Numbered from the stretch's first letter, positions 36,434 through 60,815 are shown. The stretch: 64,000 nucleotides of DNA from an uncultured Acidobacteriota bacterium (GCA_963796275.1 CAWCKY010000007.1:320001-384000), one strand, 5' to 3'. Numbers and translations are program-made. Notes: a model not told the origin generated them from the sequence alone.

Positions 36434-39286
36434 GTGAGTGATCACTTAAGGGTGTTTAAACTAAAGGGGTGGATTTTCGCATTATGGGCTATTATTTGCG
36501 TATTGTTAGTAATAGCCGCTGATCCAACTTCCTCAACCGCTACCTTTAGCGCTTCATCGGAAGTAAGTACTTATGTCGAGTTTGAAAGTGGTCAGGTGCG
36601 CCCGCTCGCAATATCACCGGACGGTACGAAGTTGTTTGCGGTCAATACTCCCGATAATACTTTGGAGATCTTCAATATTAGCTCCAAGGGACTCGCGTTA
36701 CAGGCACGCGTCCCGGTGGGTCTCGAGCCGGTGGCAGTCGCCGCGCGCAACGATCACGAGGTCTGGGTAGTCAATCATCTGTCAGACAGCGTGAGTGTCG
36801 TGAGCCTAACGCACACGCCGCGCGTGATCCGCACTCTGCTGGTTGGCGACGAACCGCGCGATATCGTCTTCGCCGGATTCCCATCCCGCGCGTTCATCAC
36901 GACAGCGCATCGCGGCCAGCAACGCACAGACTCGTCTATTGCCGGCGTTCCCGGCGCCGGCGATCCGCAGCTCACCACGCCCGGCATCGGGCGCGCGGAC
37001 GTTTGGGTCTTCAATCCCGCCCAATTGGGGGCGGCATTCGGCGGAAGGCCCGCCAGAATTATGTCATTCTTCACCGATACGCCGCGGGCTCTGGCGGTCA
37101 GTCCCGATAAGCGAACGGTCTACGTGGCCGGGTTCAAAACCGGCAATCAGACGACAACTGTTGCCGAGGGGATGCTGTGTGAGGGTTTCGATCCGCACAC
37201 CCCATGTACATCCGAGGATGGCTCGACCAGTCCGGGCGGCAATCCGGGGCCGGCCACTAACTTCCAAGGTGCGCAAGCGCCGGAGGTCGGCCTGATCGTC
37301 AAATTCAATAACGTCACCCAGCAGTGGGAAGACGAACTGGGCCGCAACTGGAATCACGCGGTTCGCTTCAGCCTGCCAGATCATGATGTTTTCGCCGTCA
37401 ACGCCGATACGCTGACGCAGACGGCGACCTTCTCGCACGTGGGGACGACGCTGTTCAATATGGTAACGAACCCGGCGACAGGCAAGCTCTATGTCTCGAA
37501 CACAGAAGCCTTCAACCATGTCCGGTTCGAAGGCCCTGGTAATTTCGGCGGGAGCACCGTACAGGGGCACCTGGCTGAAACGCGCATCACCGTGATCTCC
37601 GATGAGACGGTCGTGCCGCGACATCTCAACAAACACATCGACTACACCAAGCTCGCGGTCGATCCGGGTTTCGACCCGACGGCCAAGAACCACAGCCTGT
37701 CGACGCCGCTCGAGATGGCGGTGACGAGCGATGGAGATACGCTCTATCTCGCGGCGTTCGGATCGAGCAAGATTGGAGTGTTCGACACGACGGCCCTGGA
37801 GAACGACACCTTCGATCCGAGAAGCATCAGCGCGAATTACATCACGGTCAGCGGCGGCGGTCCGAGCGGGATGGTGCTGGACGAGGCGAAGGGGCGGCTG
37901 TATGTGATGACTCGTTTCGACAACTCGGTGAAGGTGATCGATCTGGCATCGAAGCGGGAGATTGCTCAATCGGGGCTGCCCAATCCGGAACCGGCATCGG
38001 TGGTTGCGGGCCGGCCGCTGCTCTATGACGCGACGCGATTCTCGGGCAACGGCGAGGCGTCGTGCGCGAGCTGCCATATCTTCGGAGATATGGACGACCT
38101 CGCATGGGATCTCGGTAATCCCGATGAGGTAGTTACGAAAAACCCGATACCCATCAATTTCGGGATTCTTTTCATGCTGGGGCTGCCGACCGGGTTAGAT
38201 GCGCCGATTAACGGCACTGGTACGGTCGACGACTTCCATCCGATGAAGGGGCCGATGACGACGCAGACGCTGCGCGGCCTGCGAACCGCGGGAGCTATGC
38301 ACTGGCGCGGCGATCGCGCCAACGGGGTCTTCGGTATCGACCCGGTCGACGCCGAGCTGTCGTTCAATAACTTTCTCGTCGCGTTCGACGGTCTCATAGG
38401 GAGCCCCGGCCTGCCGTCTGCTGCCGAGATGCAGAAGTTCACCGACTTCCAGTTACAGGTCCTGCCGCCGCCCAATCCGGTGCGCCGGCTCGACAACTCC
38501 TTAACCCCATCACAGCAACGCGGCCGGGATTTCTATATCGGATCGCGACCCGCCGACGGCGTCATTATCCCCAATGTATTCGAGCTTGCATTCAGCTGTA
38601 ACGGCTGCCATGTGCTGGATCCGGGTCAGGGCTTCTTCGGTACAGGCCGCAATGCGAGTTTTGAAAACGAGACCCAGATCGTAAAGATCCCACACCTGCG
38701 TAACCAGTACGCAAAGGCGGGTATGTTTGGCCATCCGAAAGTGGACTTCTTCGACGCGCCTAATAGCGGATTTACGGGCGAACAGATCCGCGGCTTCGGC
38801 TTTTTGCACGACGGCTCGACCGATACTCTCTTCCGCTTTCTCACCGCAACCGTATTTCGCCCGAATCCAAACACCGGCTTCCCTCAGATAAACCCGGACG
38901 CTACCAGAGCAGATGTCGAGCAGTTCCTGCTCGCATTCGACAGCGATCTCGCGCCGATCGTCGGGCAACAGGTGACGTTGAGCTATGCCAATCTCCTGAC
39001 GGCAGGGCAGCGCATCGATTTGCTAATCCGAAGGGCGGAAGCGCAGTTCATTTCGAAATCGCTGGGCGGCGCGGTGCGAGAGTGTGACCTGGTGGCTAAT
39101 GTCGCGCTGGGTGGCAGCATCAGGAGATTCATCTATGATCCGGGCGCCCGGAAATTCATTTCAGAAGATGGCAGGCTCCGCCTCCCGGATATCGCATTGC
39201 GCATACTCGCGCTGGTACCGGGACAGGAGGTGACCTATACCTGCCTGCCGCCGGGATCGGGGGCGCGCATCACCGGTACCGATTAA
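36434..39286 (+). CDS. Secreted YVTN/YncE beta-propeller fused to di-heme cytochrome c (CcP/MauG-like) region
   Basis: Signal-like N-terminus; propeller repeats (VPVGLEPVAVA, LLVGDEPRDI); two CxxCH motifs (CASCH, CNGCH); HWRGDR, KIPHLRN, FLHDGS. Confidence 0.8.
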   Translation: MSDHLRVFKLKGWIFALWAIICVLLVIAADPTSSTATFSASSEVSTYVEFESGQVRPLAISPDGTKLFAVNTPDNTLEIFNISSKGLALQARVPVGLEPVAVAARNDHEVWVVNHLSDSVSVVSLTHTPRVIRTLLVGDEPRDIVFAGFPSRAFITTAHRGQQRTDSSIAGVPGAGDPQLTTPGIGRADVWVFNPAQLGAAFGGRPARIMSFFTDTPRALAVSPDKRTVYVAGFKTGNQTTTVAEGMLCEGFDPHTPCTSEDGSTSPGGNPGPATNFQGAQAPEVGLIVKFNNVTQQWEDELGRNWNHAVRFSLPDHDVFAVNADTLTQTATFSHVGTTLFNMVTNPATGKLYVSNTEAFNHVRFEGPGNFGGSTVQGHLAETRITVISDETVVPRHLNKHIDYTKLAVDPGFDPTAKNHSLSTPLEMAVTSDGDTLYLAAFGSSKIGVFDTTALENDTFDPRSISANYITVSGGGPSGMVLDEAKGRLYVMTRFDNSVKVIDLASKREIAQSGLPNPEPASVVAGRPLLYDATRFSGNGEASCASCHIFGDMDDLAWDLGNPDEVVTKNPIPINFGILFMLGLPTGLDAPINGTGTVDDFHPMKGPMTTQTLRGLRTAGAMHWRGDRANGVFGIDPVDAELSFNNFLVAFDGLIGSPGLPSAAEMQKFTDFQLQVLPPPNPVRRLDNSLTPSQQRGRDFYIGSRPADGVIIPNVFELAFSCNGCHVLDPGQGFFGTGRNASFENETQIVKIPHLRNQYAKAGMFGHPKVDFFDAPNSGFTGEQIRGFGFLHDGSTDTLFRFLTATVFRPNPNTGFPQINPDATRADVEQFLLAFDSDLAPIVGQQVTLSYANLLTAGQRIDLLIRRAEAQFISKSLGGAVRECDLVANVALGGSIRRFIYDPGARKFISEDGRLRLPDIALRILALVPGQEVTYTCLPPGSGARITGTD

Positions 39287-39371: not shown

Positions 39372-41198
39372 TTATTGCGGCCCGGGGGTAGCGGTAGCGA
39401 TTGGCAGCGGCTTACTTTCACTCACCCCGCTACCCTCTTTTACAATATGAAGCTGATTGATGGCGACATTAGCTAACTTATCGACCTTGCCGCTGGGCCA
39501 TTCAATATCGACCCGCTCGATCCTTTCGACCAGTCCCAGTCCGAACGTGACGGGCAGTTCGCTCTGCGAGCAGTAGCTCGATCCGCTCCGCACCATCTGC
39601 CACTGCTTTGCGCCTCCAACGGGATAGATCGTGATCTTCGCGCCGATGCCGTCACGGTTCGATTTAGCACCTATCGTTCTGAATTTGACGAAGCGGTTTT
39701 GATTGCCGCCATCGTTGCGCAGGAGATATGCCGGGCCGCCGTTGGTTGTGACCAGGATGTCCGGGTCGCCATCGTTATCGTAATCGCCATAAGCGGCACC
39801 GCGCGCAACGATCGCCCGGGCGAATGGTTTGCCGGCTTTACGCGTGACTTCGGTGAATTTCCGTTTGCCCTCGTTGCGGAATATTTGCGGGCGCTGCGCG
39901 TAGGTGATCTTCGGCTGCACTTTATTGATATCGTCGGCTACGTGGCCGTTGGCCATGAAAATATCCGGCAGCCCATCGAGATTGTAATCGAAGAAGAATG
40001 TGGCGAAGGTCAGCGAGAGCTGCGTATCGCGGCCGACATTCGATGACGGCGCTTCGTCGATGAAGAGGCCCTGGCCCTGGTTGTGGAAGATGGCGAGCAT
40101 TTCGTTGGAGAAGTTGCCGACTATTATGCTCGGATTGCCCGATCCGTCGATATCTGCAGCGTCTGTTCCCATCCCGCCCCGCGCTTTGCCTTCTTCGCTG
40201 AATGCGACTCCTGAGGTTACTGCTTCGTCGCTGAATGTCCCGTTGCCGTTGTTCTTCCAGAGTTTGTTCGGCTGCGTGTCGTTGGCGACGAATATATCCG
40301 GCCAGCCATCGCGGTTGTAATCGAGGATGGTGACACCCAGAGATTTACCGGGCGGGTCTTCGATCATCCCAGCTTTTTCCGTCACGTCGACAAATTTGCC
40401 GCCGGCATTATGATAGAGGCGGGAGTTCTGGCCTTTGTACTTTTCGGGAGTGCAGTAGCTCTTGTTCGTGCCGTCGAGTGCGCAAAATGCGTCAGTTTCC
40501 GGCGACCATTCGACATAGTTGCAGAGGTATAAATCCAGTTTTCCGTCTTTGTCATAATCGACAAATGCAGCCGACGATGAAAAATATGGGGGGCCGGCCA
40601 ATCCGGTCTTCGTCGTCGAATCGGAGAATTTGCCGTTGCCGAGGTTGCGAAACAGACGATTCTGTCCGAGCGCCGTAACGAATAGATCATCCCAGCCGTC
40701 GTTGTCGTAATCGCCTACTGCTACGCCCTGTCCATATATCTGTTTCGCCAGACCCGACTGAGATGTGACATCGCTGAAAGTTCCGTTTTGATTATTGTGA
40801 TAGAGCGCCATGAACGAACGGCGTTTTTTCGGAGCTTCTTCAAAATCCATACTGTTAATCAGAAGGATGTCCTGCCAGCCGTCATTGTCATAGTCGATGA
40901 AGGCGCAGCCGGAGCCGTTGGTCTCGGGTAGATATTTTTTACCGAACGCTCCGTTGTTGTGGCGGAAACGAATGCCGGCCTGCTGTGTGACATCGGTGAA
41001 TTCGATGGGCGTAAATTTTGCCGGGTCCAGCGGTGTTGGCGATGGTGAGGACGATGCCGGCGGTGTCGAACTGGCTACTGTCTGCGGCGGCGTCGCATTT
41101 GATTGCGCATTATTCGAGTGTTGTTGGTGGCAGGCAGTAGTGAGTATTAACAAAAAGATAGGGCAGAGCGAAAAATAACGTACAACCGTATGCATCAT
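39372..41198 (-). CDS. CRTAC1 family (FG-GAP + ASPIC/UnbV) probable lipoprotein
   Basis: Lipobox-like LTTAC; repeated DYDNDGW.D motifs; C-terminal SNRDGIGA...SSYCSQS...FGLG...WPSG. Confidence 0.88.
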   Translation of the reverse strand: MMHTVVRYFSLCPIFLLILTTACHQQHSNNAQSNATPPQTVASSTPPASSSPSPTPLDPAKFTPIEFTDVTQQAGIRFRHNNGAFGKKYLPETNGSGCAFIDYDNDGWQDILLINSMDFEEAPKKRRSFMALYHNNQNGTFSDVTSQSGLAKQIYGQGVAVGDYDNDGWDDLFVTALGQNRLFRNLGNGKFSDSTTKTGLAGPPYFSSSAAFVDYDKDGKLDLYLCNYVEWSPETDAFCALDGTNKSYCTPEKYKGQNSRLYHNAGGKFVDVTEKAGMIEDPPGKSLGVTILDYNRDGWPDIFVANDTQPNKLWKNNGNGTFSDEAVTSGVAFSEEGKARGGMGTDAADIDGSGNPSIIVGNFSNEMLAIFHNQGQGLFIDEAPSSNVGRDTQLSLTFATFFFDYNLDGLPDIFMANGHVADDINKVQPKITYAQRPQIFRNEGKRKFTEVTRKAGKPFARAIVARGAAYGDYDNDGDPDILVTTNGGPAYLLRNDGGNQNRFVKFRTIGAKSNRDGIGAKITIYPVGGAKQWQMVRSGSSYCSQSELPVTFGLGLVERIERVDIEWPSGKVDKLANVAINQLHIVKEGSGVSESKPLPIATATPGPQ

Positions 41199-41286
41199 AA
41201 ATTGTGTTATCGAGGTTAATCGAGAGACCTAGATAACTGAAGACAGTGCAATTTAAAGTTGGTTATTATCAACAGATTCTGATTGA

Positions 41287-41441
41287 CTCCGGAGGAGCCC
41301 GATGTATATAGCCTTCGATTACCCAAGTCTCACAAGCTCCGGAGGAGCGATATACAGACATTCATTCATTCATATGTCGCTCCTGCTGAGCTTGTGAGAT
41401 GTGGGAGAACGAGTTCTATAAACATCCCGCGCCGATGGCGC
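41287..41441. repeat. REP-like palindromic element
   Basis: CTCCGGAGGAG...GATGTATATAG; AAGCTCCGGAGGAGCGATAT / ATGTCGCTCCTGCTGAGCTT; CTATAAACATC inverse of the left part. Confidence 0.65.
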
Positions 41442-41542
41442 TCAGGACCGATATCGTTGATTCAATGATCTTTTATTTGCACACTCTTCAGATAACTATA
41501 ACTCAATACATCCAACCGTCTGAATGCTCCTGGCCCATTCTC

Positions 41543-42559
41543 TTATTGAATGGAGATGTTTTTGATCGACAGAGGAATGAATCTTCGATCGATCAGGTCC
41601 TTCATTTCGATCGGTCTCTCCAGGATGCCCGCCTTGAGCGCCATATCGTGAATCTGCTGCAACTCTTCATCGGTCGGCGTCAGCATTCGATAGCTTACAC
41701 GGTCAGGAGGTTGCGTCAGCACATATCGTACGACTTTTTCATCCTGGCGAAAATAGGGGGCAGCGACCCTGGCTGCTTCGATACGATGTGTCTCCGCCCA
41801 CTCGCCGCTCTCGGCAATGCTGCGCACCAGGTCGCGCATTAGATCAGGGCGCTCATTTATCAGCTTCTCGGTGGCAACCAGAACGCAGGAGATGAACCTC
41901 GGCCAGATGTCCTTGGCGTGATAGAGCACGCGACCGCTGCCGTCGAGTTCCGCCTTGGCGGCGTGAGGCTCGCCGATAAAGTATGCGTCGATGGCTCTGG
42001 CTGCCAGCGCGCCCGGCATATCGGGCGGCGGCATCTCGACGAACCTGATCTCATCTTCTTTTACGCCCTGGTTTTCCATCAGCTTGCGAATGACGAGATT
42101 TTGATTGCTGTATTTCGAGGGTATGGCAAATGTCTTCCCGCGCAGATCGCGCAGGTCTTTGGCCGGAAGGTCCTTACGCACGATAACTGTGGATCCGTCG
42201 CGATGGCCCAGATACAGTATCTTCACGGGCACGCCCTGTTCGCGCAGTTTCATGGCGAGCGGCGCGATCATAAATGTCGCCTGCAGTCGACCACCCTTAA
42301 TCGACTCGACGATCGTGGGGAAATCGGTAAATCTCATCGACTCGAACCGAGTCGTCGCGCTGGTGCGGGTCGCAAAATCCGTCACCGGACACGTGAGATG
42401 TCAGGTGACCGGCAGGAAACCCACGCTGAGTTGCTCGCGCGGACTGTCGACCCTGCTCGATGTTTGTTCTACCTGCCACGGTTTGTACCGTAGCACCCCC
42501 AATACGATGATTGCCAGGATCGTGCCAATGACGATGCGTATAATCGGTGAATGAAACAT
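41543..42559 (-). CDS. SsuA/TauA/NrtA-like ABC substrate-binding protein with in-frame TGA at 42401-42403, probable selenocysteine
   Basis: ORFs 42401..42604 and 41543..42385 share one frame, separated only by TGA: LSVGFLPVT*HLTCPVTDF; joined product is 338 aa from ATG 42559 with an N-terminal TM/signal segment. Confidence 0.8.
42371..42393 (-). promoter_or_regulatory. Candidate bacterial SECIS hairpin
   Basis: After UGA: CAUCUCA-CGU-GUCCG-[GUGA]-CGGAU-UUU-GCG; stem with a GU-starting apical loop beginning at nt 16 after the UGA. Confidence 0.55.
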
Positions 42560-42561
42560 AA

Positions 42562-42655
42562 ATAATTGATTATTGATAATTGATAATTGATAGTTGAAAT
42601 ACACTGTGGCAACAATTTAACCGAATCATCAATCATCCATTATCCATTATCAATT
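42562..42655 (+). repeat. Heptamer-armed hairpin element, copy 2
   Basis: (AATTGAT)n arms; core AGTTGAAATACACTGTGGCAACAATTTAACCGAATC; right arm encodes the ATPase C-terminus ELIMDNG*. Confidence 0.8.
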
Positions 42656-43370
42656 CTCTTTCGAGACCCAGTTCTGTCAATATTCGATGTACGGCTTCGA
42701 CGACTTCCGGATGGGTCAGGTTGCGGGGTCGCGGTTCAAACAACCGCATCTCGCTGCGGACCTTCGCCGGACGTTCGGATAAAACGATGACTCGGTCGGC
42801 CAGTTGCGCGGCCTCTTCGATGTCGTGCGTCACGAGCACCACGGTGCGCGGGTGCTCGTCCAGCATACGCGCAAGTTCCTGGCGCATGCGCAACCGCGTC
42901 AGGTAATCGAGCGCGGAGAATGGTTCGTCGAGCAGCAGGACGTCCGTGTCGCCCGCCAATGCGCGCGCGATCTCGACTCTCTGCCGCATTCCGCCAGAGA
43001 GTTTGTGCGGGTGATGATTTTCGAAACCTTCGAGCCTGATCAATGCGATGAACTCGCTCAACTGGCGTTCGATTTCACGCTCATCCTTCAGATGTCTGAG
43101 ACCCAGCGCGATGTTTTCACTTACAGTCAGCCAGGGGAAAAGCCCGTCATTTTGATAGACCATCCGCATTCTTCCGGTGCGCGTGAGCTTGCCCGAGGAT
43201 GGATCGTCGAAGCCGGAGAGCAGGTTGAGCAGGGTCGTTTTGCCGCAGCCCGACGGCCCGACGACCGCGACGAATTCACCCCGCGCGATCTCGATATCAA
43301 GCGGCAGGATCACTTCGACTGCGCCGAAACTTCGCGTTACCTTATCCAATTGAAAGATGATATCTGTCAT
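42633..43370 (-). CDS. SsuB/TauB-like ABC ATP-binding protein
   Basis: GPSGCGKTT, LSGGMRQR, LLDEPFSALD, VTHDIEEA. Confidence 0.92.
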   Translation of the reverse strand: MTDIIFQLDKVTRSFGAVEVILPLDIEIARGEFVAVVGPSGCGKTTLLNLLSGFDDPSSGKLTRTGRMRMVYQNDGLFPWLTVSENIALGLRHLKDEREIERQLSEFIALIRLEGFENHHPHKLSGGMRQRVEIARALAGDTDVLLLDEPFSALDYLTRLRMRQELARMLDEHPRTVVLVTHDIEEAAQLADRVIVLSERPAKVRSEMRLFEPRPRNLTHPEVVEAVHRILTELGLERELIMDNG

Positions 43371-43378
43371 CTCATTTA

Positions 43379-44153
43379 TTATCTCTCATATCCCCATCGC
43401 ACGCTCTCGATCTTCATCAATTGTACGAGAAGTCGGTCGATCACCACACCGATGATACCGATGACGATCATTCCGACGACGAGCAGGTCCATCCTCAGTC
43501 CATTGCGCGCATCCCAGATGGCGAATCCCAGCCCATCGCGGCCTGCTATCATCTCGGCCGCGACCACAACGAGCCACGATAGTCCGGCGGTAACCCGCAA
43601 GGTGGTGATCACCTGCGGCGATATGGCGGGCAACGTCACCTGAATGAGCAACTCGAAGCCCTCGATACCGTAATCCCGCGCTACCCGGAAATAGACATTC
43701 GGGATGCTCGCGACTGCCGAGATGGTGGCCAGGACGATCGGGAAGAATGAGCGCCATGAAGATCAGGAAGATGGCGGGTTTATCGCCGATGCCGAACCAC
43801 AGGATCGCGAACGGAATCCAGGCGAGAGGCGAGAGGTTACGAAAAAAATTGATCGCCGGAAGCATCGCAGTCCGCGCGCGCGCGCGCTGGCCGAGCCACA
43901 AGCCAAGAGGAATGCCGGCGCCGGTAGCGAGAGCGAACCCTGCGGTCACTCGGAAGAGCGAAGCGACCACGTCATTGTACAGCCGCCCGCTCCCAACCTC
44001 TTCGCGGAATCCCTTCGCCACCGAGATCGGTGACGGAAAGATCGAGTCGGGAAAGAGGCGAAGCCAGGCCAACAGCCACCAGATTGCAATAATGATCGAA
44101 GCCACCAGAAGTGGTAACAACCGAGTTCTATCGGATACTGTAGTAGAAGTCAT
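43379..44153 (-). CDS. SsuC/TauC-like ABC permease with a 1-bp frameshift near 43751
   Basis: SPLAWIPFAILWFGIG in the first frame, VVVAAEMIAG..GLGF in the second; removing one base at ATG GCG C TCA TTC restores IFMASFFPIVLAT. Confidence 0.82.
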
Positions 44154-44400
44154 CTTATCCAGCCCTTTTAATTAATAATATATATGAGGCAAAAAGGGCA
44201 AAATGAGGAAAAAATGATTTTATTTGCTTTTACTCTATTTTCCCTGTTTCTCCCTCTCTCATGCAGAAATTTTGAGTCTATTCGTAAAATTCCCTTCGAT
44301 TTACATTCATTAATAAGCGAAAATATAATTTGAGTTATTACTGGCCGGAGGGATTGCCTTCGATTAAGACGCTACCGGAAGTATTAAGAGGAAAACTCAT

Positions 44401-44643
44401 ATGACGCCTGATGAATTGATTGAAAACCAAAGAACGATGCTCAGTTTTATGGCGCGCATCGAAGCCAACCAGGGTAAGCTCGATAGCGTGATTGCCAATC
44501 AAACTACAATCATTGAGAATCAAAATTTAATCAGAGCGAACCAGGAGAAACTGGATAAGCTGTTAGCCAATCAGGAGGTAATCCAGGCAAATCAGGCCAA
44601 AATATTGGCCAATCAAGCGGAGATTATTTCCCTGCTTGGATAG
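44401..44643 (+). CDS. 80-aa coiled-coil protein with repeated (I/L)xxNQ heptads
   Basis: RBS AAGAGG before ATG; eight NQ units, mostly 7 or 10 residues apart. Confidence 0.75.
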   Translation: MTPDELIENQRTMLSFMARIEANQGKLDSVIANQTTIIENQNLIRANQEKLDKLLANQEVIQANQAKILANQAEIISLLG

Positions 44644-44746
44644 GGTTAATTCTTCAATCTCCGGATTGGTCTAATTGTATTGCTGATCGGCATGCCTAAG
44701 CGGCACTCGGCAGCTTAACAATTTACTGCCAATAATTCGTGAAGTA

Positions 44747-46090
44747 ATGATTGTAACAACTCAGCCGCGCAAGGAGCTCAAGCGACAACTCGGTCTAAGA
44801 GCGGCCACGGCAGTGGTGATCGGCGAGGTGATCGCCGTCGGCATCTTTCTCACCCCGGCCGGCATGGCGAAATCGCTCGGTTCTCCCATGTGGTTACTAA
44901 TAGTTTGGTTGGTGATGGGATTGATGGCTCTTTGCGGTGCGCTCTGTTATGGCGAGCTGGCCGCGCGTTTTCCCGAAGCGGGTGGAGGTTATGTTTACCT
45001 GCGCGAGGCTTACGGGCAGAAATTGGCATTTCTATATGGCTGGAAATGTTTTCTGGTAATGGATCCGGGAATCACGGCTGCACTGGCGGTCGGACTTTCC
45101 GGTTATCTAAGCTATCTCGTCACCCTCCCGCCCTTTGGCATAAAGTTATTCATCGTCGGAATAATCTGTGCGATTGCAGTCGTGAATATTTACGGTGTGC
45201 GGCTCGGATCTCGGTTGATGCAGTGTATTACAGCGGTCAAACTCGGCTCGCTGGCGCTAATCGTATTGTGGGCGGTTATTTCAAGACCCGGTAGCATGTC
45301 ACATTTCACGCCATTCCTCTCTCAGCGAACGGGCTCCGAGCCTCTGGTTACTGCCCTCGCGGGTGCCCTGGTAGCCGGGTTCTTCTCATTCGGCGGCTGG
45401 TGGGACCTGAGCAAGCTCGGGGGTGAGGTTCGCGATCCCGTGCACACCTTACCGCGCGCGATGGCCATCGGCGTGCTGGCTGTAACCGCCGTTTATGTAC
45501 TGACCAGCGCAGTCTTCCTATACCTCGTTCCATTGGAGCGCGTAACTTCGGGTGAGACGTTCGCGGCGCAGGCTGGCGAGGCGCTTTTCGGCTCCGCCGG
45601 CGGATGGGTCTTTTCGCTCATCGTGATAGTGTCGATTTTTGGCAGCCTGGCCGGCTTTATGATGGCGGCGCCGCGCGTCTACTACGCGATGGCTCGTGAC
45701 GGAGTTTTTTTCGACTTCGTCTCCGCCGTACATCCGCGCTTCGGCACGCCCGTGCGCGCGATAGTCTTGCAGGTCGTGATGGCGCTGCTACTGGTAACGT
45801 TGGGCACTTTCGAAAATATCATAGCTTACTTCATCTTTGTGACAGTGCTCTTCATCGGTCTTACCGTCGCCGCTGTTTTCATCCTGCGCCGTCGCCACGG
45901 TAATTTATCGCAATACCGCATCGTCGGTTATCCGTTGACGCCGTCATTTTTTCTGCTACTGGTGACAATCCTCCTGGTTCTGCTCGGCGCTAACAGTACC
46001 CGACAGGCCGTACTCGGGTTGGGGGTAGTTGCTCTGGGGGTGCCTGTTTATCATCTGTTTTTTCAGCGGCAGTCACGTACCGACGAATGA
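44747..46090 (+). CDS. APC family amino acid permease (LAT/SteT-like)
   Basis: GIFLTP, CYGELAARFPEAGGGYVYLREAYG, FSFGGW, PRVYYAMARDG, HPRFGTP. Confidence 0.9.
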   Translation: MIVTTQPRKELKRQLGLRAATAVVIGEVIAVGIFLTPAGMAKSLGSPMWLLIVWLVMGLMALCGALCYGELAARFPEAGGGYVYLREAYGQKLAFLYGWKCFLVMDPGITAALAVGLSGYLSYLVTLPPFGIKLFIVGIICAIAVVNIYGVRLGSRLMQCITAVKLGSLALIVLWAVISRPGSMSHFTPFLSQRTGSEPLVTALAGALVAGFFSFGGWWDLSKLGGEVRDPVHTLPRAMAIGVLAVTAVYVLTSAVFLYLVPLERVTSGETFAAQAGEALFGSAGGWVFSLIVIVSIFGSLAGFMMAAPRVYYAMARDGVFFDFVSAVHPRFGTPVRAIVLQVVMALLLVTLGTFENIIAYFIFVTVLFIGLTVAAVFILRRRHGNLSQYRIVGYPLTPSFFLLLVTILLVLLGANSTRQAVLGLGVVALGVPVYHLFFQRQSRTDE

Positions 46091-46231
46091 GCTTAGAAAT
46101 TATACCGGAGGATTAAGTGCGCTTGCGGGCGGCCGGGTTTGATGATAGAGGGATATGGCAGATCACACTCAATGCCTCGTGTTCAGTAACATAAACGCCT
46201 CGCCGGCGCTTCGGGAATGGGCCGCGAATGA
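46087..46231 (+). pseudogene. Decayed remnant of an AhpD/CMD-like peroxidase-related gene
   Basis: 46117 onward reads VRLRAAGFDDRGIWQITLNAS and, with two 1-bp corrections, (W)FSNIN(R)LAGASGMGRE*, resembling the 'LRAxGFDDxxIxQIxxxASWFNYINRxAxxLG' C-terminus of AhpD-like proteins; ATGA coupling at 46087. Confidence 0.6.
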
Positions 46232-46252
46232 TGGCCCGCGATAAATTGGAGA

Positions 46253-49200
46253 ATGATCACGAACAAATTCCAGATTTCAATCCTCAAATTTGAGATAACA
46301 CTCATCCTGATACTAGCCGTCACACTGGCAGGTTGTAACGGCAGGGGAAACCTTCCCGATCCCTCCTCGAGAGAATATCGCGATGCCGTCTCGGCCTTCT
46401 ATGTCGGTTTGGGCGCTTTGCAGGCGACCGACGATATACGCGCTAAGCAACGGCTCACGCGATTCACCGAGCTCGCACCGGGGGAGCCGGCCGGTTGGGT
46501 AAATCTGGGTGTACTTGCGCTGAGGCAGCAGGAGTTCGACGCGGCATATGAAAACCTCGAAAAGGCGCGCGCGATAGTCCCCGATGACAGCCGCATCGAG
46601 GGGATGCTCGGCCTGGTCGAAACGAAGCGCGGCAGATTTGCCGAAGCGATCGCGCATCTGCGCAAGGCGGTCGAGCTCGACCAGAAGAATTTGAAGGCGA
46701 TCTATGGGCTCGCGCAGGAGATCGAGCGGCAGGGCGCTGAGAACAGCGAAGTGGAAGTGCAGAATTTGATCGAGAAGATCCTACAAGTCCAGCCTGACAA
46801 TCTGGCGGCGCAGCTTGAATCGATTCGCATTGCCGCGAAACGCGGCGACGCAGAAACGGCTAAGCGAATCGTCGGGGGCATCGGCCAGAAGGCATCGGAC
46901 TGGCCACCGGAGATCGTTGCACAATTGAATGCATTGCAGGCGGCTGTCAATGGCCCGAATGTGCGGGCCGCCGCAACCCAGGTGGCTTTTTTGCGAAATG
47001 TTCTGGTGCGCTTACCCGATTATCGCCAAAGTCTGGCGGCGATCAGAAATCCGACCGAAGAGACGGGCGAACCGTTTGATAGGTTTTTGAAGTTGGCCTC
47101 GCCGAAGCTCGAGGCTGCCCCGCCGGATGAGGGATTAGCTTTCAACGCAGAGCCGATTGATGCCGGTGAAGGGAAGTGGGCCATGGTCGGAGCGATAACG
47201 CTCGACAGCGATGGCCCGCCTGTGGCCTTCACCGTCGATCAGCGAAATGTGCGAATAGGCGGCCAGTCGCTCACATTTCCGACCGGCGGAGAGATGATTA
47301 ATTCGAATGCGGTGGCGGGGATCGATTACGACTACGATTTCAAAACCGACCTGGCGGCGGCTGGCAGAGGCGGTTTCAAGCTCTACCGTCAGGAATCCCG
47401 CGATAAATTTATCGATGTTACGGCCCGGATGGGTTTGCCGCCGGCGCTGACGAACGCCGCTTATGACGGCGTATGGGCGGCGGATATCGACCTCGATGGA
47501 GATCTCGATATCGTGCTCGGTGCTGTCGCCGGCCAGCCGCCTGTGTTCAGGAATAACGGCGACGGAACGTTCAAGGAGTTGCGGCCATTCGCCGGGAGCG
47601 AAGGGCTGCGTGGCTTCGTCTATGCGGACTTTGATGGCGACGGCGATCCGGACGCGGCTCTGCTCGATGCCAATGCAAGATTGAAATTTTTCAGCAATGA
47701 ACGGCTCGGAGTTTTTCGCGAACGGGCCTTGCCGCCAAACATCGAGTCGATCAGCGCCCTTGACGTGGCTGACATAAACGGCGATGGCGTTCTAGATCTG
47801 CTTCTGCTGGATTTCAACCTGGCGGTGAAGCGTATCTCCGACAAAGGCGCGGGTGAAGGATGGGAGATAGTTGATGTCTTTGGGAGGCAAGCGGATGGCG
47901 CCACCGTGCCTCCGTCGCCGGGTTCGGTGAAGCTAGTCTCGGGCGATTTCGATAACAACGGATTGCTGGACCTGGCATTCGGCGGATTTATCTGGCTCAA
48001 CGGATCACCAGGAAAGAACCCGCGCCGGATCGATACGGGAAATACGACCGCCACTTCCTCGGCGGATCTAACCGGAGACGGGCGTCTCGATTTGCTGGCG
48101 ATGAATGCGGAGCGACGGCCGGTCAGACTCATCAACCGGGGCACTAAGGACTACCACTGGCAAGTCATCCGCCCGCGCGCCGCCAAATCCACAGGCGACC
48201 AGCGCATCAACTCATTCGGCATCGGTGGGGAGATCGAAATCCGCGCCGGACTGCTCTTCCAGAAACAGGTCATCGATTCTCCTCTGGTTCATTTCGGTTT
48301 GGGCGAGCAAACGCAGACTGACGTTGCGCGCTTCATCTGGCCGAACGGTTCCATTCAGGGCGAATTCGAATTGAAAGCCGATCAGGCGGTGCTGGCCGAG
48401 CAGCGATTGAAGGGCTCGTGTCCATGGCTCTTCGCCTGGAATGGCAGGTCGATGGAGTTCGTCAAGGACTGCGCGCCCTGGAGTCCGGCATTGGGTCTGA
48501 ACATAAACGCGCAGGTTACCGCCGGCATACAACAGACTGAAGAATGGATGAAGATTCGCGGCGACCAGCTCGCGCCACGCGATGGGTATTACGATCTGCG
48601 CGTCACCGCGGAATTGTGGGAGACCTACTATATCGATCATTATTCGCTCGTTGTGGTAGATCATCCGGCAGAAACTGAAATTTTCGCCGATGAGCGTTTC
48701 TCCATCCCTCCGCCCGAATTGAAACTCTACGCGACATCCAGACCCAGACCTTTCAGCCGGGCCGTCGATGACAACGGGCAGGATGTGACCGCCGTGGTCG
48801 GTGCATTGGACGAGAAATACCTCGATACATTCGGGCGCGGGCGCTATCAGGGGCTAACGCGCGATCACTACGTCGAACTCGCATTGCCCGATGAGGCTCC
48901 GCGCGCGGGCCGCCTTTGGTTGATCGCGCATGGTTTCGTGCATCCGACCGATACCACCGTCAATATGGCGATGAGCCAGCCCTACGATTACGTCCCCCCG
49001 AAAGGGCTGAGCCTCGAAGCGCCCGATGGCAAGGGCGGGTGGCGCGTCGTCGACCCCAACATCGGCTTTCCCGCGGGCAAGAAGAAGACGATGCTCATCG
49101 ATTTGACGAAAGTCATGACGCTCGACTCGCCGCGCCGCATTCGCCTGCGAACGAATATGGAGGTCTACTGGGATAAGCTGGAATGGGCGGAGGGCCTGCC

Positions 49201-49717
49201 GGAAGCGCAATTCAAAACGCAACGGTTCAATGCCGAAACGGCAGAGTTGCGTTTTCGCGGATACTCGGTGGTGGCGAGGGCCGACGATTCATCGCCTGAG
49301 TTGCCCGATTACAACCGGCTGGAATTCACCGGGCAGAAGTGGCGCGATATGATCGGTTACTTTACTCGTTACGGGGATATCCGCGAGTTGCTCGAAAAAG
49401 TCGATGACCGGATGGTATTCACCAATGCAGGCGATGAAGTGAGATTGCGCTTCAAAGCAGTGGCTGATCCGCCTGCCGGCTGGACGCGCGATTACGTGAT
49501 GATCGGTAACGGCTGGATCAAAGATGGTGATTACAATTCGACTTTCTCGAAGACGGTTCTGCCATTGCCCGATGCGAAGATGCGGGAATACACTAAACCT
49601 CCCTCGCGTTTGGAAGATGATCCGGTCTATCAGCGCCACGCACGCGACTGGCAGGAGTTTCATACACGATATGTGTCGCCAGATCGGTTCCGGAACGCGA
49701 TGAAACCATTAGATTAA
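46253..49717 (+). CDS. TPR + FG-GAP/CRTAC1 + ASPIC-UnbV large probable lipoprotein
   Basis: Lipobox LAGC; N-terminal TPRs; DxDxDGDxD repeats; HFGLG...WPNG; C-terminal extension starting KGSCPWLFAWNG. Confidence 0.85.
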   Translation: MITNKFQISILKFEITLILILAVTLAGCNGRGNLPDPSSREYRDAVSAFYVGLGALQATDDIRAKQRLTRFTELAPGEPAGWVNLGVLALRQQEFDAAYENLEKARAIVPDDSRIEGMLGLVETKRGRFAEAIAHLRKAVELDQKNLKAIYGLAQEIERQGAENSEVEVQNLIEKILQVQPDNLAAQLESIRIAAKRGDAETAKRIVGGIGQKASDWPPEIVAQLNALQAAVNGPNVRAAATQVAFLRNVLVRLPDYRQSLAAIRNPTEETGEPFDRFLKLASPKLEAAPPDEGLAFNAEPIDAGEGKWAMVGAITLDSDGPPVAFTVDQRNVRIGGQSLTFPTGGEMINSNAVAGIDYDYDFKTDLAAAGRGGFKLYRQESRDKFIDVTARMGLPPALTNAAYDGVWAADIDLDGDLDIVLGAVAGQPPVFRNNGDGTFKELRPFAGSEGLRGFVYADFDGDGDPDAALLDANARLKFFSNERLGVFRERALPPNIESISALDVADINGDGVLDLLLLDFNLAVKRISDKGAGEGWEIVDVFGRQADGATVPPSPGSVKLVSGDFDNNGLLDLAFGGFIWLNGSPGKNPRRIDTGNTTATSSADLTGDGRLDLLAMNAERRPVRLINRGTKDYHWQVIRPRAAKSTGDQRINSFGIGGEIEIRAGLLFQKQVIDSPLVHFGLGEQTQTDVARFIWPNGSIQGEFELKADQAVLAEQRLKGSCPWLFAWNGRSMEFVKDCAPWSPALGLNINAQVTAGIQQTEEWMKIRGDQLAPRDGYYDLRVTAELWETYYIDHYSLVVVDHPAETEIFADERFSIPPPELKLYATSRPRPFSRAVDDNGQDVTAVVGALDEKYLDTFGRGRYQGLTRDHYVELALPDEAPRAGRLWLIAHGFVHPTDTTVNMAMSQPYDYVPPKGLSLEAPDGKGGWRVVDPNIGFPAGKKKTMLIDLTKVMTLDSPRRIRLRTNMEVYWDKLEWAEGLPEAQFKTQRFNAETAELRFRGYSVVARADDSSPELPDYNRLEFTGQKWRDMIGYFTRYGDIRELLEKVDDRMVFTNAGDEVRLRFKAVADPPAGWTRDYVMIGNGWIKDGDYNSTFSKTVLPLPDAKMREYTKPPSRLEDDPVYQRHARDWQEFHTRYVSPDRFRNAMKPLD

Positions 49718-49810
49718 TGGATAATTGATAATGGATAATTGATAATTCGTATAAACTGAGGCAACAATCTAACCGAATTATCAATTATCAATTATCCAAT
49801 TATCTATTCC
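49715..49810 (+). repeat. Heptamer-armed hairpin element, copy 3
   Basis: (AATGGAT AATTGAT)2, core AATTCGTATAAACTGAGGCAACAATCTAACCGAATT, (AATTATC)n. Confidence 0.85.
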
Positions 49811-49818
49811 CCATATAT

Positions 49819-51615
49819 ATGAATAATCGCATCACACGAATCGTACTGATAATTTTCTTTATCGCGCTGCTGGCCACGCCGCTCATCATCAAGCAGCTGA
49901 ACGCGCGTAACGAAATAGCCCGGTCTTCAATTGATCCGGCCACCGCGCTGTCTCGCTACGGGTTTTATATGGAAGAGTCGGCGAAATCCGCCGGCATAGA
50001 GTTTAATCATCAGGCGCCGACCTTCGATGCGAAGCTCAGTCATATAATGACGCAGGTCGCAGTCGTCGGCGCGGCCGTCTCGGTGGTGGATTTCGATCGT
50101 GATGGCTGGAACGACTTTTACGTCACCAACAGCGGCGAAGGCAGCAGGAACGCGCTTTATCGCAACCTGGGCAAAGGCGTATTCAAAGATGTCGCGGGAG
50201 AAGCCGGGGTGGCCGAGCTGAACAGCCGCGAGCTGGGGGTTTCGATGGGCGCGGTGTGGGGTGATTACGATAACGATGGATACGAGGACCTGTTCTTATA
50301 CCGCTGGGGGCGGCCCGAGTTGTTTCACAACGCCGAGGGGAAGCGGTTTACGCGAGTGACGGAGGCGGCTGGATTTCCCCAATGGATCAACGCCGGCACC
50401 GCCATCTGGTTCGATTACGACCGCGACGGAAAGCTCGATCTGTTCATCGGCGGCTACTATTCCGAAAAGGTAGACCTCTGGCGGCTCACGGACACCAAAA
50501 TGATGCCCGAGAGCTTCGAGTATGCGAACAACGGCGGTCGCAAATATCTTTACCGCAATCTGGGCGGGGGGAAGTTTGAAGAAGTGGGAGAGAAGTTAGG
50601 CCTCAAATCGACACGCTGGTCGTTCGCGGCGGTCGCGGCCGATCTGCGGGGCACGGGTTATCCCGATCTCTTCGTCGCCAACGATTACGGCGTCTCTGAA
50701 CTGTTCTTCAACGACGGCGGAAAGCGATTTCGCGAAGTGGGAGGAGCGACGGGAGTAGGTTATTCGCCGAAGAGCGGAATGAATGCGAGCGTGGGTGATG
50801 TTTTGAACCGCGGCCATTTTGCCATCTATGTTTCGAACATCAGCGAAGAGGGAATACTGCTGCAGGGCAACAATCTCTGGGTACCGCGTGAGGGAACTTC
50901 GGGCGACGATATCAAATACGACAACCTGGCGCGTGATATGGGCGTCGAGCTGGGGAAATGGAGTTTCGGCGCGCAATTTGGCGATTTGAATAATGACGGC
51001 AAGCTCGACCTCTATTTGGTCAACGGGTATGTTTCGGCTGACCGCGACAACACCTACTGGTACGATTTCTCGAAAGTAGCCGGCGGTAACAAATCTATTA
51101 TCTCCGATGCGAAGAACTGGCCGCCGATGGATGGCCGGAGCCTCGCCGGTTACCAGCAGAAGCGCGTGTGGATCAACGACGGTGCGGGAAAATTCAACGA
51201 GGTAGCGCAGGCCGTAGGCGTGACCGATGTATACGATGGACGCTCGGTTGCGCTGGCGGATTTCGGCAATCGCGGCGTGCTCGATGCCGTGACAGCGAAC
51301 CAGCGCGGGCCGGTGCTCTATTATCGCAACACGGTCGATCCTGGAAATAATTGGATAGACCTCGAGCTTGAAGGAACGACCAGCAACCGGAGCGCCATTG
51401 GCGCCCAGGTGCGCGTTTTTTGGAATGGGCAGACGCAGATTCAGGAAGTCGCAGGCGGCAGCGGGTTCTGCGCGCAGAATCAACGCCGATTACATTTCGG
51501 CCTGGGCAAGGGGGCGCAGCTCGAGAAGGTTGAGATTCGCTGGCCGTCGGGTAAAATACAGACTCTTTCCGCCCTTGAGCTAAACAAAGTCCATCGTTTG
51601 AAGGAGCCGGTGTAG
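49819..51615 (+). CDS. CRTAC1 family / UnbV-like protein
   Basis: DFDRDGW, GDYDNDG, PESFEYANNGG, WSFGAQFGDLNNDG; C-terminal ASPIC-UnbV (SNRSAIGA...GFCAQN...HFGLG...WPSG). Confidence 0.88.
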   Translation: MNNRITRIVLIIFFIALLATPLIIKQLNARNEIARSSIDPATALSRYGFYMEESAKSAGIEFNHQAPTFDAKLSHIMTQVAVVGAAVSVVDFDRDGWNDFYVTNSGEGSRNALYRNLGKGVFKDVAGEAGVAELNSRELGVSMGAVWGDYDNDGYEDLFLYRWGRPELFHNAEGKRFTRVTEAAGFPQWINAGTAIWFDYDRDGKLDLFIGGYYSEKVDLWRLTDTKMMPESFEYANNGGRKYLYRNLGGGKFEEVGEKLGLKSTRWSFAAVAADLRGTGYPDLFVANDYGVSELFFNDGGKRFREVGGATGVGYSPKSGMNASVGDVLNRGHFAIYVSNISEEGILLQGNNLWVPREGTSGDDIKYDNLARDMGVELGKWSFGAQFGDLNNDGKLDLYLVNGYVSADRDNTYWYDFSKVAGGNKSIISDAKNWPPMDGRSLAGYQQKRVWINDGAGKFNEVAQAVGVTDVYDGRSVALADFGNRGVLDAVTANQRGPVLYYRNTVDPGNNWIDLELEGTTSNRSAIGAQVRVFWNGQTQIQEVAGGSGFCAQNQRRLHFGLGKGAQLEKVEIRWPSGKIQTLSALELNKVHRLKEPV

Positions 51616-51619
51616 GAGT

Positions 51620-52474
51620 ATGACACCAGAAGTCAGTGCATCAACGGCGGCGCCACACGCGCCGTATTCGACCCTGATCAGGGCGTTCAAGAAGTTCTTC
51701 AGTTTCGAGAATCGTTATCTAGCGCCGGCGCTGGTGACGGTAATCCTGCTCATAGGTCAACTCACCTTCGGATTTCTGGAGAGCTATTGGAAGACTGCGC
51801 TCGCGATCGCTACGGCGATTGGGCTCGAATTTCTACTGGGCCGCCTCTTCTGGGGCAAGTGGCCTCATCCGGCGAGCGCTTACATCTCCGGCATCAGCGT
51901 CGGGATGCTGGTGCGGTCGCCCGCGATCTGGCCTTATGCGCTGTGCAGTTTGATATCGATCACCTCGAAATATGTCCTGCGCGTAAAGGACCGTCACATC
52001 TGGAATCCATCGAATTTCGGCATTTGCGCCATGTTGTTCCTGGCCCCTTTCAGCGTGGCGGGTCTGAGCATTCAGTGGGGCAACGAGCTCTGGCCAATGG
52101 CGGTTGTCTGGGCGCTGGGATCCGTCATCATCTATCGTCTCAAACGATTTCACATCTGCGCGACTTACGTCATCTCGTTTATCGCCCTTGCGTATGTGCG
52201 CAGTATATTTACGGGCCACCCGTTCCTGGCGGAAGTAGCGCCGATCACCGGCCCGATGTATCAGCTCTTCGTTTTCTTTATGATCACCGATCCGAAGACG
52301 ACGGTGCAGAGCAAATGGGGGCAATGTGTGGTGGCATTCTGCGTCGCGCTTGCTGAAATGGTCCTGCGGCTGAATCAGAGTGTACACGCGCCCTACTACG
52401 CGCTCTTCATAGTCGGGCCGGCGGCGAACCTGATCGAGATAATGTGGAAATCGCGCAAGAATCGCGCGCGGTGA
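51620..52474 (+). CDS. RnfD/NqrB-like (UnbU-like) integral membrane protein
   Basis: SAYISG, SKYVLR...HIWNPSNFG, FFMITDPKT. Confidence 0.8.
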   Translation: MTPEVSASTAAPHAPYSTLIRAFKKFFSFENRYLAPALVTVILLIGQLTFGFLESYWKTALAIATAIGLEFLLGRLFWGKWPHPASAYISGISVGMLVRSPAIWPYALCSLISITSKYVLRVKDRHIWNPSNFGICAMLFLAPFSVAGLSIQWGNELWPMAVVWALGSVIIYRLKRFHICATYVISFIALAYVRSIFTGHPFLAEVAPITGPMYQLFVFFMITDPKTTVQSKWGQCVVAFCVALAEMVLRLNQSVHAPYYALFIVGPAANLIEIMWKSRKNRAR

Positions 52475-53699: not shown

Positions 53700-53799
53700 T
53701 AATGGATAATTGATAATGGATAATTCGTAAATACTGTAGCAACAATTTATCCGATAAATCAATTATCAATTACCCATTATCAATTATCAATTATCAATT
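53693..53799 (+). repeat. Heptamer-armed hairpin element, copy 4
   Basis: Left arm supplies the rfbB stop codon; core AATTCGTAAATACTGTAGCAACAATTTATCCGATAA; right arm abuts the rfbA ATG. Confidence 0.85.
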
Positions 53800-60642: not shown

Positions 60643-60815
60643 TATCAATTTGGTCTTTTTCGGAAGAATGTTGTATTCTTGGCCGAACTCAATATTCAAT
60701 CTGCAATCAAAGTAATAGATGAAGTGAGCGCTACTTCAATGGCGCATGCCAGTCTGGCAAAACCAATATTCACTTCCTGATGACTGTGTTGTCTGCACTG
60801 CAAGGTAAGAGGAAA

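Follow-up and report, generated by a model that had tools for sequence, protein, structure and literature searches.

CRTAC1 and UnbU genes without a polyketide synthase: a conserved gene core and its changing neighbours in an uncultured Acidobacteriota bacterium

INTRODUCTION

[quoted passage not shown] E4 and E5 encode a protein with FG-GAP and UnbV_ASPIC domains and an RnfD-like membrane protein, respectively. The three extra genes of the cassette are described as being of unknown function in the accessible text of a 2023 publication (PMC9992847). The same family pair is encoded in a stretch of 64,000 nt from an uncultured Acidobacteriota bacterium of soil (CAWCKY010000007.1:320001-384000), referred to here as the window, whose own numbering is used for all positions. 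Between 39372 and 52474, a locus of two divergent arms carries three genes for CRTAC1-type proteins and one for the membrane protein UnbU, accompanied by genes of an ATP-binding cassette (ABC) importer, an amino-acid permease and a remnant of an AhpD-like gene. There is little doubt that the three CRTAC1 proteins and UnbU constitute a real, PKS-free and widely conserved envelope module. The accessory genes would act as optional, thiol- or selenol-based supply lines of this module, a reading that is put forward tentatively.

The likeness to E4/E5 is one of Pfam families and of names given by the Joint Genome Institute (JGI). The defining PKSE/thioesterase adjacency is absent from the locus, three CRTAC1-type genes, one of them with tetratricopeptide (TPR) repeats, are present instead of one, the hosts are Acidobacteriota, Planctomycetota and Verrucomicrobiia, and the accessory cassettes differ.

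UnbU shares its fold with RnfD and NqrB (template modelling (TM) score of ~0.6-0.7) and its Pfam match lies over the cut-off. The C-terminal FFM(I)TDP-type motif of RnfD aligns with UnbU, in a sequence alignment that covers only residues 169-280, i.e. the C-terminal third, with an E-value of 0.023. In RnfD and NqrB, an SGAT-type motif is the site of covalent flavin mononucleotide attachment at Thr/Ser. This motif was not seen in the UnbU alignments, the one with RnfD being partial (169-280). The other subunits of these complexes (Rnf A, B, C, E and G; Nqr A and C-F) were not found among the scanned open reading frames (ORFs) of the window or the recurrent neighbour families, and the predicted partner of UnbU is a periplasmic propeller.

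The selenocysteine-assisted organometallic (SAO) system of Haft and Gwadz (10.1101/2022.07.06.499078) includes the transporter SaoA/SaoP/SaoX/SaoB, which is likewise NitT/TauT-like and whose binding protein has selenocysteine (Sec) or a conserved Cys at the presumed ligand site. According to the accessible part of that report, its hosts are exclusively anaerobic, whereas the present hosts are soil Acidobacteriota. The Sec of the SAO system also lies in a motif other than LPVT-U-HLTCP, its gene neighbours differ, and the permease of the window is devoid of Sec. Membership of the SAO system was rejected, the scores remaining far below the equivalog cut-offs for SaoX (64.6 vs 300 bits), SaoP (80.8 vs 295 bits) and SaoA (189.3 vs 360 bits). 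The accessible sections of a 2026 review (PMC13188914) list only SaoX and SaoB as selenoproteins among ABC binding proteins. The AhpD-like TIGR01926 family already figures there as a listed selenoprotein family, and the same sections make no mention of a conserved association between this family and an APC permease in the vicinity of CRTAC1/UnbU genes. Neither a PKS-free CRTAC1/UnbU module nor an LPVT[C/U]HLTCP selenoprotein was found described in the literature searched, mostly without subscription papers or supplements, and a search of the CRTAC1 structure literature yielded no bacterial CRTAC1 operon.

THE CRTAC1/UnbU CORE

The first core gene (46253-49717, + strand) codes for a lipoprotein of 1154 aa in which Pfam recognises TPR, FG-GAP and UnbV_ASPIC domains and in which a lipobox (LAGC) is visible. 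It is followed by a gene for a 598-aa CRTAC1-type beta-propeller (Pfam) anchored by an N-terminal helix (49819-51615, + strand) and by the gene for UnbU/E5, a multi-pass membrane protein of 284 aa with the RnfD/NqrB fold (51620-52474, + strand; NQR2_RnfD_RnfE, 35.8 bits for a cut-off of 27.7). The third CRTAC1-type protein, a lipoprotein of 608 aa (39372-41198, - strand; FG-GAP_3, 190 bits; UnbV_ASPIC, 71 bits), is encoded at the end of the other arm. All three window proteins show the feature of the CRTAC1/UnbV family, FG-GAP repeats followed by UnbV_ASPIC, above the Pfam cut-offs. The two arms diverge around 44154-44400, and all the genes listed in the original prediction, which had been made from the sequence alone, were recovered at their positions and on their strands (ORF list, Pfam, NCBIfam).

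Relatives were collected by scanning an alignment of the 284-aa protein against one genome per species. Of the 593 confirmed matches, the 80 best were retained, together with up to 10 kb of flanking sequence (loci designated by L and a number), and their content was counted by tblastn with the proteins of the window. They belong to Acidobacteriota of several orders, Planctomycetota, Verrucomicrobiia and one member of the Casimicrobiaceae. The host of the window itself would belong to the Blastocatellia (Acidobacteriota), judging from the source names of close homologs.

The gene order TPR-CRTAC1, anchored CRTAC1, UnbU is near-universal in this set. The anchored CRTAC1 gene lies directly upstream of UnbU in 78 of the 80 loci (75/76 where at least 2 kb of upstream sequence is available), the stop codon of the former and the start codon of the latter overlapping by 4 nt in many loci, and the TPR-CRTAC1 gene lies upstream in 73 (65/67 where at least 5.6 kb is available). 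An ortholog of the third, left-arm CRTAC1 (at least 50% identity) is present in 55 loci (53/74 where at least 2.8 kb of downstream sequence is available) and follows UnbU directly in 51 (49/74 where the flank is sufficient). Since this gene elsewhere mostly stands directly downstream of UnbU, the left-arm CRTAC1 gene of the window can be considered a displaced fourth core gene. In the window and in L004 alike, it ends the ABC operon, after the binding-protein gene.

The family extends well beyond these loci. UnbU has more than 8000 database homologs at ~70% identity across phyla, and its profile retrieved 2668 clusters (E-value of at most 1e-3; clusters at 50% identity) from 1.84 billion representative proteins. 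Many of its 120 closest homologs are named 'enediyne biosynthesis protein E5' by JGI, these being names only, and the homologs of the 598-aa protein are named 'E4' (JGI) or 'CRTAC1 family protein'. No PKS was found among the 44 window ORFs that were put through Pfam (16 + 28, thus not every ORF). In agreement with the original prediction, the CRTAC1/UnbU arm is a module independent of a PKS, and the 80 loci show it to be widely conserved.

The E4 and E5 names could still suggest that the genes belong to a cryptic enediyne-like pathway whose PKS is encoded elsewhere in the genome. A trio of genes for an Asn-synthase-like PP-loop protein, a RaSEA-like radical S-adenosylmethionine (radical-SAM) protein and a flavin adenine dinucleotide (FAD) oxidoreductase, found near the module in 13 of the 80 loci, goes in the same direction (L014, L033, L044 and L065, at ~+3.7 to +8 kb from UnbU; L030, L032, L035, L046, L051, L053, L057, L064 and L077). 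However, within 10 kb of the 80 cores, the only ORFs that reach 1300 aa are five TPR-CRTAC1 genes and one ORF of 1591 aa in L069 that has no Pfam match, the 44 scanned ORFs of the window include no PKS, and the family is huge at 2668 clusters. The WxWxIP motif of halogenases is absent from the FAD protein, for which the designation 'flavin halogenase' was rejected. To our knowledge, the host phyla of the family are not known for enediynes. A cryptic enediyne pathway is, in sum, most unlikely.

STRUCTURE AND PREDICTED COMPLEX

The AlphaFold2 model of UnbU has a mean predicted local distance difference test (pLDDT) score of 74.6. When it was searched with Foldseek against the PDB, the top 15 matches were all RnfD or NqrB chains (E-values from 5e-6 to 7e-4, query TM-score (TMq) of 0.59-0.70). 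The model of the 598-aa protein (pLDDT of 84.6) consists of a long N-terminal helix and a propeller, and its best PDB match is murine CRTAC1 (9etn_A; E-value of 8e-30, TMq of 0.68, target TM-score (TMt) of 0.73, 17% identity). The bacterial protein differs from this mammalian CRTAC1 by the N-terminal helix, which is predicted to pack on UnbU.

The original prediction had proposed to model the products of 49819-51615 and 51620-52474 together. The complex model obtained a score of 0.81 (three runs, 0.80-0.82), the best of three controls reaching 0.01, with pLDDT values of 79-80 for the partner (at least 79) and at least 85% of the contacts shared between runs. It passed a calibration mark that is reached by 116 of 157 solved complexes and by 2 of 215 mismatched pairs, these counts applying only approximately, since own alignments were used for the present model. 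We know of no solved complex of the CRTAC1-UnbU kind, so that a score owed to a memorised structure is improbable. The predicted interface comprises two elements. The N-terminal helix of the propeller protein (residues 3-28) would lie against UnbU helices, and invariant propeller loops (231-235, 343-350 and 414-436) would touch invariant UnbU loops (141-157 and 198-213). The model speaks for an association between UnbU and the anchored CRTAC1. Proteins combining UnbU with FG-GAP/UnbV_ASPIC domains in a single chain were also found (P0244, 822 aa; P0359, 881 aa; P0372, 607 aa) and, as predicted sequences, support a joint function of UnbU and CRTAC1.

Further single-chain predictions of the same composition are P0249 and P0268. 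All five fusion proteins are metagenome gene calls and may be gene-calling artefacts.

The structural matches leave room for another function of the core, that of a cell-surface or glycan device without any redox or metal role, in which UnbU would be a channel or an anchor and the propellers would resemble lectins or lyases. After murine CRTAC1, the propeller matches in the PDB include integrin heads, GlcNAc-binding fungal lectins, YesW (a rhamnogalacturonan lyase), aldos-2-ulose dehydratase and a heparin sensor. Urea and ammonia channels are among the structures that the UnbU model resembles (TM-score of ~0.4-0.46), and a conserved redox Cys motif is absent from the core proteins. The dTDP-rhamnose genes rmlB, rmlA and rmlC lie directly 3' of UnbU in the window (52626-55253, + strand). 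A rmlB gene also follows UnbU in L001 and L002, and rmlB/A/C are found ~3.4 kb downstream in L010; they are absent from the other 76 loci, so that rml genes after the core concern only 4 of 80. Two further points speak against a glycan device: both recurrent accessory cassettes described below hold redox, thiol or metal-type proteins, and UnbU contains many invariant polar residues (His, Arg, Asp, Gln and Trp), which at ~70% identity across phyla look enzyme-like rather than like those of a passive pore. This explanation of the core is therefore regarded as improbable.

THE ABC ARM

In the left arm, upstream of the binding-protein gene discussed in the next section, lie the genes for an ABC transporter ATPase of 245 aa (42633-43370, - strand; ABC_tran, 109 bits) and for an ABC permease that is split over two frames (43379-44153, - strand). 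The N- and C-terminal halves of the permease are in different frames owing to a 1-nt insertion within 43740-43760, and alignment with L004 and L003 reveals one surplus base in TTCATGGCGCTCATTC. Permease orthologs of the other loci are in a single frame. The window protein matches the SaoP, TauC and SsuC models only over residues 9-138. Among the components by which a NitT/TauT-type importer is recognised, the binding protein and the ATPase were identified and an intact permease was not. A working importer, as implied by the original prediction, is thus doubtful in the window: the arm probably does not work there, given the frameshift in the permease and the reduction of the AhpD-like gene to a stub. 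Neither the frameshift nor the sequence detail of the stub figured in the original prediction. The core is intact, in contrast with the damaged accessory arm, which looks to be decaying.

The original prediction had been staked beforehand on the linkage of the ABC arm to the CRTAC1/UnbU arm in other genomes. By a strict criterion, i.e. ATPase or permease orthologs of at least 60-75% identity beside the core, the ABC arm was found in 13 of the 80 loci. L001, the closest relative, adds only a fragment of the ABC permease at a contig end, which brings the strong cases to 14, and more distant versions give three weak cases (L007, L058 and L077). ATPase orthologs with 61-77% identity adjoin the core in 12 of the loci. 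The gene order takes at least three forms. As in the window, the ABC genes lie upstream of the TPR gene and diverge from it in L003, L004, L005, L013, L018, L028, L031 and L070; they come directly after UnbU on the same strand in L014, L033, L044 and L065 (and in L007 in the distant form), and they are downstream and reversed in L051. Other flanking ORFs mostly belong to single-member families. The ABC-bearing loci carry, with few exceptions, the labels Acidobacteriota, Blastocatellia or Pyrinomonadaceae. The two arms are thus linked in other genomes, and the original prediction is not refuted on this point. The link is nonetheless an option that only some lineages have, and the absence of the ABC arm from 63 of the 80 loci indicates that the core does not need it. 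That the link is nevertheless a functional one appears somewhat more probable than its being fortuitous.

A SELENOCYSTEINE CANDIDATE IN THE BINDING PROTEIN

The importer's binding protein is a membrane-anchored protein of NitT/TauT type, 338 aa long when read through a UGA codon (41543-42559, - strand; NMT1_2, 93.7 bits; SsuA_fam, 130 bits for a cut-off of 163.5). Its nearest named families in NCBIfam are SsuA, TauA and SaoX, of which SsuA and TauA bind sulfonates and taurine. The in-frame TGA (42401-42403, - strand) lies in the motif GFLPVT-U-HLTCPV. At this codon, TGA is also found in L004, L065 and L007, and TGT or TGC in seven other loci. With L004 and L065, the alignment continues across the stop and covers residues 1 to 338, at 76-79% identity. 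LPVTCHLTCP is present in 117 of the 120 best database homologs, and the remaining three, the window's own protein among them, are gene calls of 280 aa that begin just past the stop. The C/U-x3-C motif (LPVT[C/U]HLTCP), at the start of the binding domain, is otherwise invariant. The arrangement expected of a selenoprotein gene, an in-frame UGA aligned to Cys with conservation on both sides, is thus present.

A hairpin, CGACUCG-GUU-CGAGUCG, lies 49-65 nt past the UGA (42338-42354, - strand) and is a candidate part of a selenocysteine insertion sequence (SECIS) element. It is perfect at +49 to +65 in the window, L004 and L065, and occurs in none of the seven Cys forms, a comparison that rests on sequences too few for a covariation test. 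In the TGA form of L007, a stem of 9 bp closed by a GUA loop occupies +16 to +36.

The decay of the operon raises the question of whether the TGA is a plain nonsense mutation, acquired along with the frameshift of the permease. Besides the frameshift in the same operon, the neighbouring gene is deleted, Rfam gives no SECIS match and gene callers annotate the 280-aa protein that starts past the stop. Against this, the TGA is shared by L004, L065 and L007, whose permeases are in a single frame, and Cys takes its place in the seven loci and the 117 homologs. The frame is conserved before and after the stop, the hairpin is confined to TGA forms, and a second TGA-bearing family of this lineage, the AhpD-like one, is present in the same neighbourhoods. 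A nonsense mutation is accordingly quite unlikely, and the UGA very likely encodes selenocysteine, as far as comparison of sequences can tell. The protein is proposed as the candidate for a new family of selenoproteins within the ABC binding proteins, with Sec at the presumed ligand site.

THE APC-AhpD PAIR, THE N/Q PROTEIN AND THE PROMOTER REGION

The right arm starts with a gene for an 80-aa protein with N/Q heptad repeats, a probable coiled coil without Pfam or NCBIfam match (44401-44643, + strand), followed by that of an APC-superfamily amino-acid permease of 447 aa (44747-46090, + strand; AA_permease_2, 180 bits). The nearest NCBIfam model of the latter is an L-type amino acid transporter (233 bits, below the cut-off). 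Next to it lies a C-terminal remnant of an AhpD-like (TIGR01926) selenoprotein gene (46117-46194, + strand). Its peptide, VRLRAAGFDDRGIWQITLNAS, matches RLRSVGFDDKGILQITLIAS of L001, the C-terminus of an intact 188-aa AhpD-like gene product encoded at the same position, which substantiates the remnant noticed in the original prediction. The stub retains ~25 C-terminal codons and lacks the full CMD/AhpD domain with its CxxU...H motif. The intact L001 protein scores 111 bits with TIGR01926 for a cut-off of 81.8, and shares CxxU with its orthologs and with the described selenoproteins of that family, of which the window keeps only the stub. The codon for the U of CxxU is TGA in all nine close orthologs, so that a CxxU AhpD-like gene is indeed present in intact loci, a point raised in the original prediction, and in four more distant ones; it is TGC in seven rows of more distant paralogs. 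The AhpD-like gene directly follows the APC permease gene in L001, L005, L021, L022, L053, L063 and L075. Several kb commonly separate the pair from the core (L021, L022, L024 and L063).

The N/Q protein is present in 15 of the 80 loci (tblastn, at least 50 bits), 11 of which bear the ABC arm, and its gene often lies directly after UnbU. Atlas, for its part, gave only hypothetical Acidobacteriota clusters. In L001 and L044, the same N/Q repeat forms the N-terminus of a sigma-54 activator, and L001 combines this activator with a well-spaced sigma-54-type promoter. In the window, the activator is absent and a sigma-54-like site with one spacer base too many is found at 44342-44358 (+ strand; TGGCCGGAGGGATTGCC vs TGGCTAAGGGATTGCT in L001). 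This degenerate site was picked by eye; a consensus scan of the window gave 13 sigma-54 matches vs a shuffle mean of 25.6, none of them in the divergent promoter region. A sigma-70-like site, TTTACA-18-TATAAT, with 11 of 12 matches lies at 44300-44329 (+ strand).

In L001, a near-perfect inverted repeat of ~170 nt (1840-2010) separates the sigma-54-type promoter from the N/Q gene. Either a mobile element of palindromic type or a regulatory structure could account for it.

Taken together, these accessory genes could also be read as an independent set for organosulfur or organoselenium uptake and thiol redox, composed of the ABC importer, the APC-AhpD pair and the N/Q protein, which would be close to a real core through shared Blastocatellia-like ancestry and not through function. 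Only 14 strong and 3 weak cases of the ABC arm are counted among the 80 loci, nearly all from Acidobacteriota, Blastocatellia or Pyrinomonadaceae, and the core of the window has remained intact while the permease was frameshifted and the AhpD-like gene deleted. The kinship of the binding protein with SsuA, TauA and SaoX, the gene for a fusion of a sulfur-transferase-like and a Rid domain adjoining that of the binding protein in L014, and the distance of kb often separating the APC-AhpD pair from the core fit this explanation too. On the other hand, adjacency to the core persists over at least three rearrangements while other flanking genes mostly vary, the third core CRTAC1 gene ends the ABC operon in the window and in L004, and the ABC genes directly follow UnbU in L014, L033, L044 and L065. 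Independence of the neighbours is possible, and its chances are judged to be well short of even.

THE ALTERNATIVE CASSETTE

A different cassette is found directly upstream of the TPR gene in 37 of the 80 loci. It codes for a His-rich membrane protein of 204 aa, a YtkA-domain protein (51 bits), a NapH/MauN-like Fe-S membrane protein of 497 aa (37.6 bits, far under the cut-off of 213) and a secreted protein of 207 aa. The secreted family is C-terminally anchored, and the site at which its signal peptide is predicted to be cleaved bears an invariant Ala-His and then x-GPP, so that the mature protein is predicted to begin with an invariant His. The ABC and NapH cassettes co-occur in none of the 80 loci (Fisher p ~1e-5). 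The ABC, APC and AhpD genes are therefore not the fixed parts that the original prediction had made of them; they are optional, with the other cassette in 37 loci and neither cassette in 27.

The 207-aa family (L036 15632-16255 and 17 other loci) and the His-rich family (L064 1407-2021 and 19 others) are always found together, upstream of the core. In the His-rich protein, the motifs HWGEH and WHHxEH are invariant and the C-terminus carries a CxC. Pfam and NCBIfam contain no relatives of either family, and profile searches of the PDB gave only chance matches. No copies of the NapH-like, YtkA, His-rich and 207-aa families, nor of the Asn-synthase/radical-SAM/FAD trio, were found in the 64 kb of the window.

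A further neighbour is encoded in L007 (11982-12983, + strand), where a copper-chaperone fusion of SCO1-SenC (147 bits) and PCuAC (90 bits) sits inside the ABC operon, between the TGA-bearing binding protein and the permease, the operon coming directly after UnbU. No second copy of this fusion was found by tblastn in the other 79 loci or in the window.

POSSIBLE FUNCTION OF THE MODULE

The two cassettes provide hints about the ligand of the module. Hints of copper are the SCO1-PCuAC fusion of L007, the YtkA domain, the weak NapH match, the Ala-His-x-GPP motif and the C/U-x3-C motif of the binding protein. Hints of an organosulfur or organoselenium compound are the SsuA/TauA kinship of the binding protein, the L014 fusion and the CxxU oxidoreductase. 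Copper or another soft metal is a possible ligand, although a doubtful one. In the mechanism proposed here, the anchored propeller would dock on the outer face of UnbU to form the working unit, and the accessory cassettes would feed or service this CRTAC1-UnbU unit with a thiophilic ligand, i.e. one that binds sulfur or selenium, handled in the cell envelope, for which copper would be the leading candidate. An envelope module with optional thiol- or selenol-based supply lines is the interpretation favoured here, with a confidence that falls slightly under even. The original prediction had been more specific in proposing a module that binds, redox-processes and imports its substrate; the envelope module has stood, while processing and import are only conjectured and the core proteins offer no conserved CxxC-type motif in their support.

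Several observations weigh against the supply-line interpretation. The ABC arm is missing from 63 of the 80 loci and neither accessory cassette is present in 27. A set made of the best 80 of 593 matches is enriched for relatives of the window. The mutual exclusivity of the ABC and NapH cassettes tracks lineage and is not an independent test. No conserved CxxC-type or metal motif was found in the core proteins: no Cys is invariant in the anchored CRTAC1, a single pair of Cys is conserved in the third CRTAC1, and the TPR protein has one Cys. The copper hints draw on one distant locus (L007), a weak NapH match and the reading of motifs, while the sulfonate- and taurine-binding families nearest to the binding protein, along with the sulfur-transferase-like and Rid fusion in L014, point to an organosulfur substrate. 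The permease frameshift may be an assembly error. With regard to selenium, typical bacterial SECIS elements are nearer to the UGA than the TGA-specific hairpin, no meaningful Rfam match surrounds the UGA at E-values up to 10, and genes of the Sec machinery are not in view within the 64-kb window.

The supply-line interpretation can be extended, in a more speculative manner, to the enediyne clusters. Their E4/E5 pair might be a piece borrowed from an older and more widespread envelope machine, in which an RnfD-fold membrane enzyme capped by CRTAC1 propellers would be serviced, depending on the lineage, by a Cys/Sec ABC importer or by an Fe-S/His-brace-like metal cassette, and would use a soft metal, possibly copper, for oxidative chemistry at the membrane surface, the binding protein representing a previously unlisted ABC selenoprotein family. 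The probability of this scenario as a whole is low, though not negligible. If it is true, organisms that do not produce enediynes would reveal the role of E4/E5 in enediyne biosynthesis. The occurrence of the E4/E5 pair as a large PKS-free family, with a predicted complex and natural fusions, opens a route to its function without a toxic product. The binding protein adds a candidate ABC selenoprotein family in aerobic soil phyla. Two selenoprotein families recur around one module, and the two lineage-specific cassettes give testable hints, copper or an organosulfur/organoselenium compound, about its ligand.

OTHER FEATURES OF THE WINDOW

The remainder of the window contains unrelated housekeeping and envelope genes (ORF list, Pfam). 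No Rfam family matched at gathering scores in the whole window and no tRNA was detected in it. Immediately before the locus, an ORF of 950 aa (36434-39286, + strand) combines YVTN/lactonase-type propeller repeats with a di-haem CCP/MauG-like segment and weakly matches hydrazine synthase beta (41.7 bits for a cut-off of 560). It forms a single-member family and is not kept beside the module in the other loci.

An ORF of 718 aa (15539-17695, + strand) joins BPD_transp_2 (residues 55-321) to Peripla_BP_4 (residues 422-677), an unusual fusion of permease and binding protein within a sugar-type ABC operon. Two adjacent ORFs of 293 and 326 aa (58692-60595, + strand) each cover only part of the DDE_5 transposase domain; they share one family and are probably decayed or duplicated copies of an insertion sequence. 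Lastly, a large open-ended ORF (60780-63998, + strand) contains planctomycete-type PSD3, PSD4, PSD5 and PSCyt3 domains and a cytochrome c domain in an acidobacterial setting.

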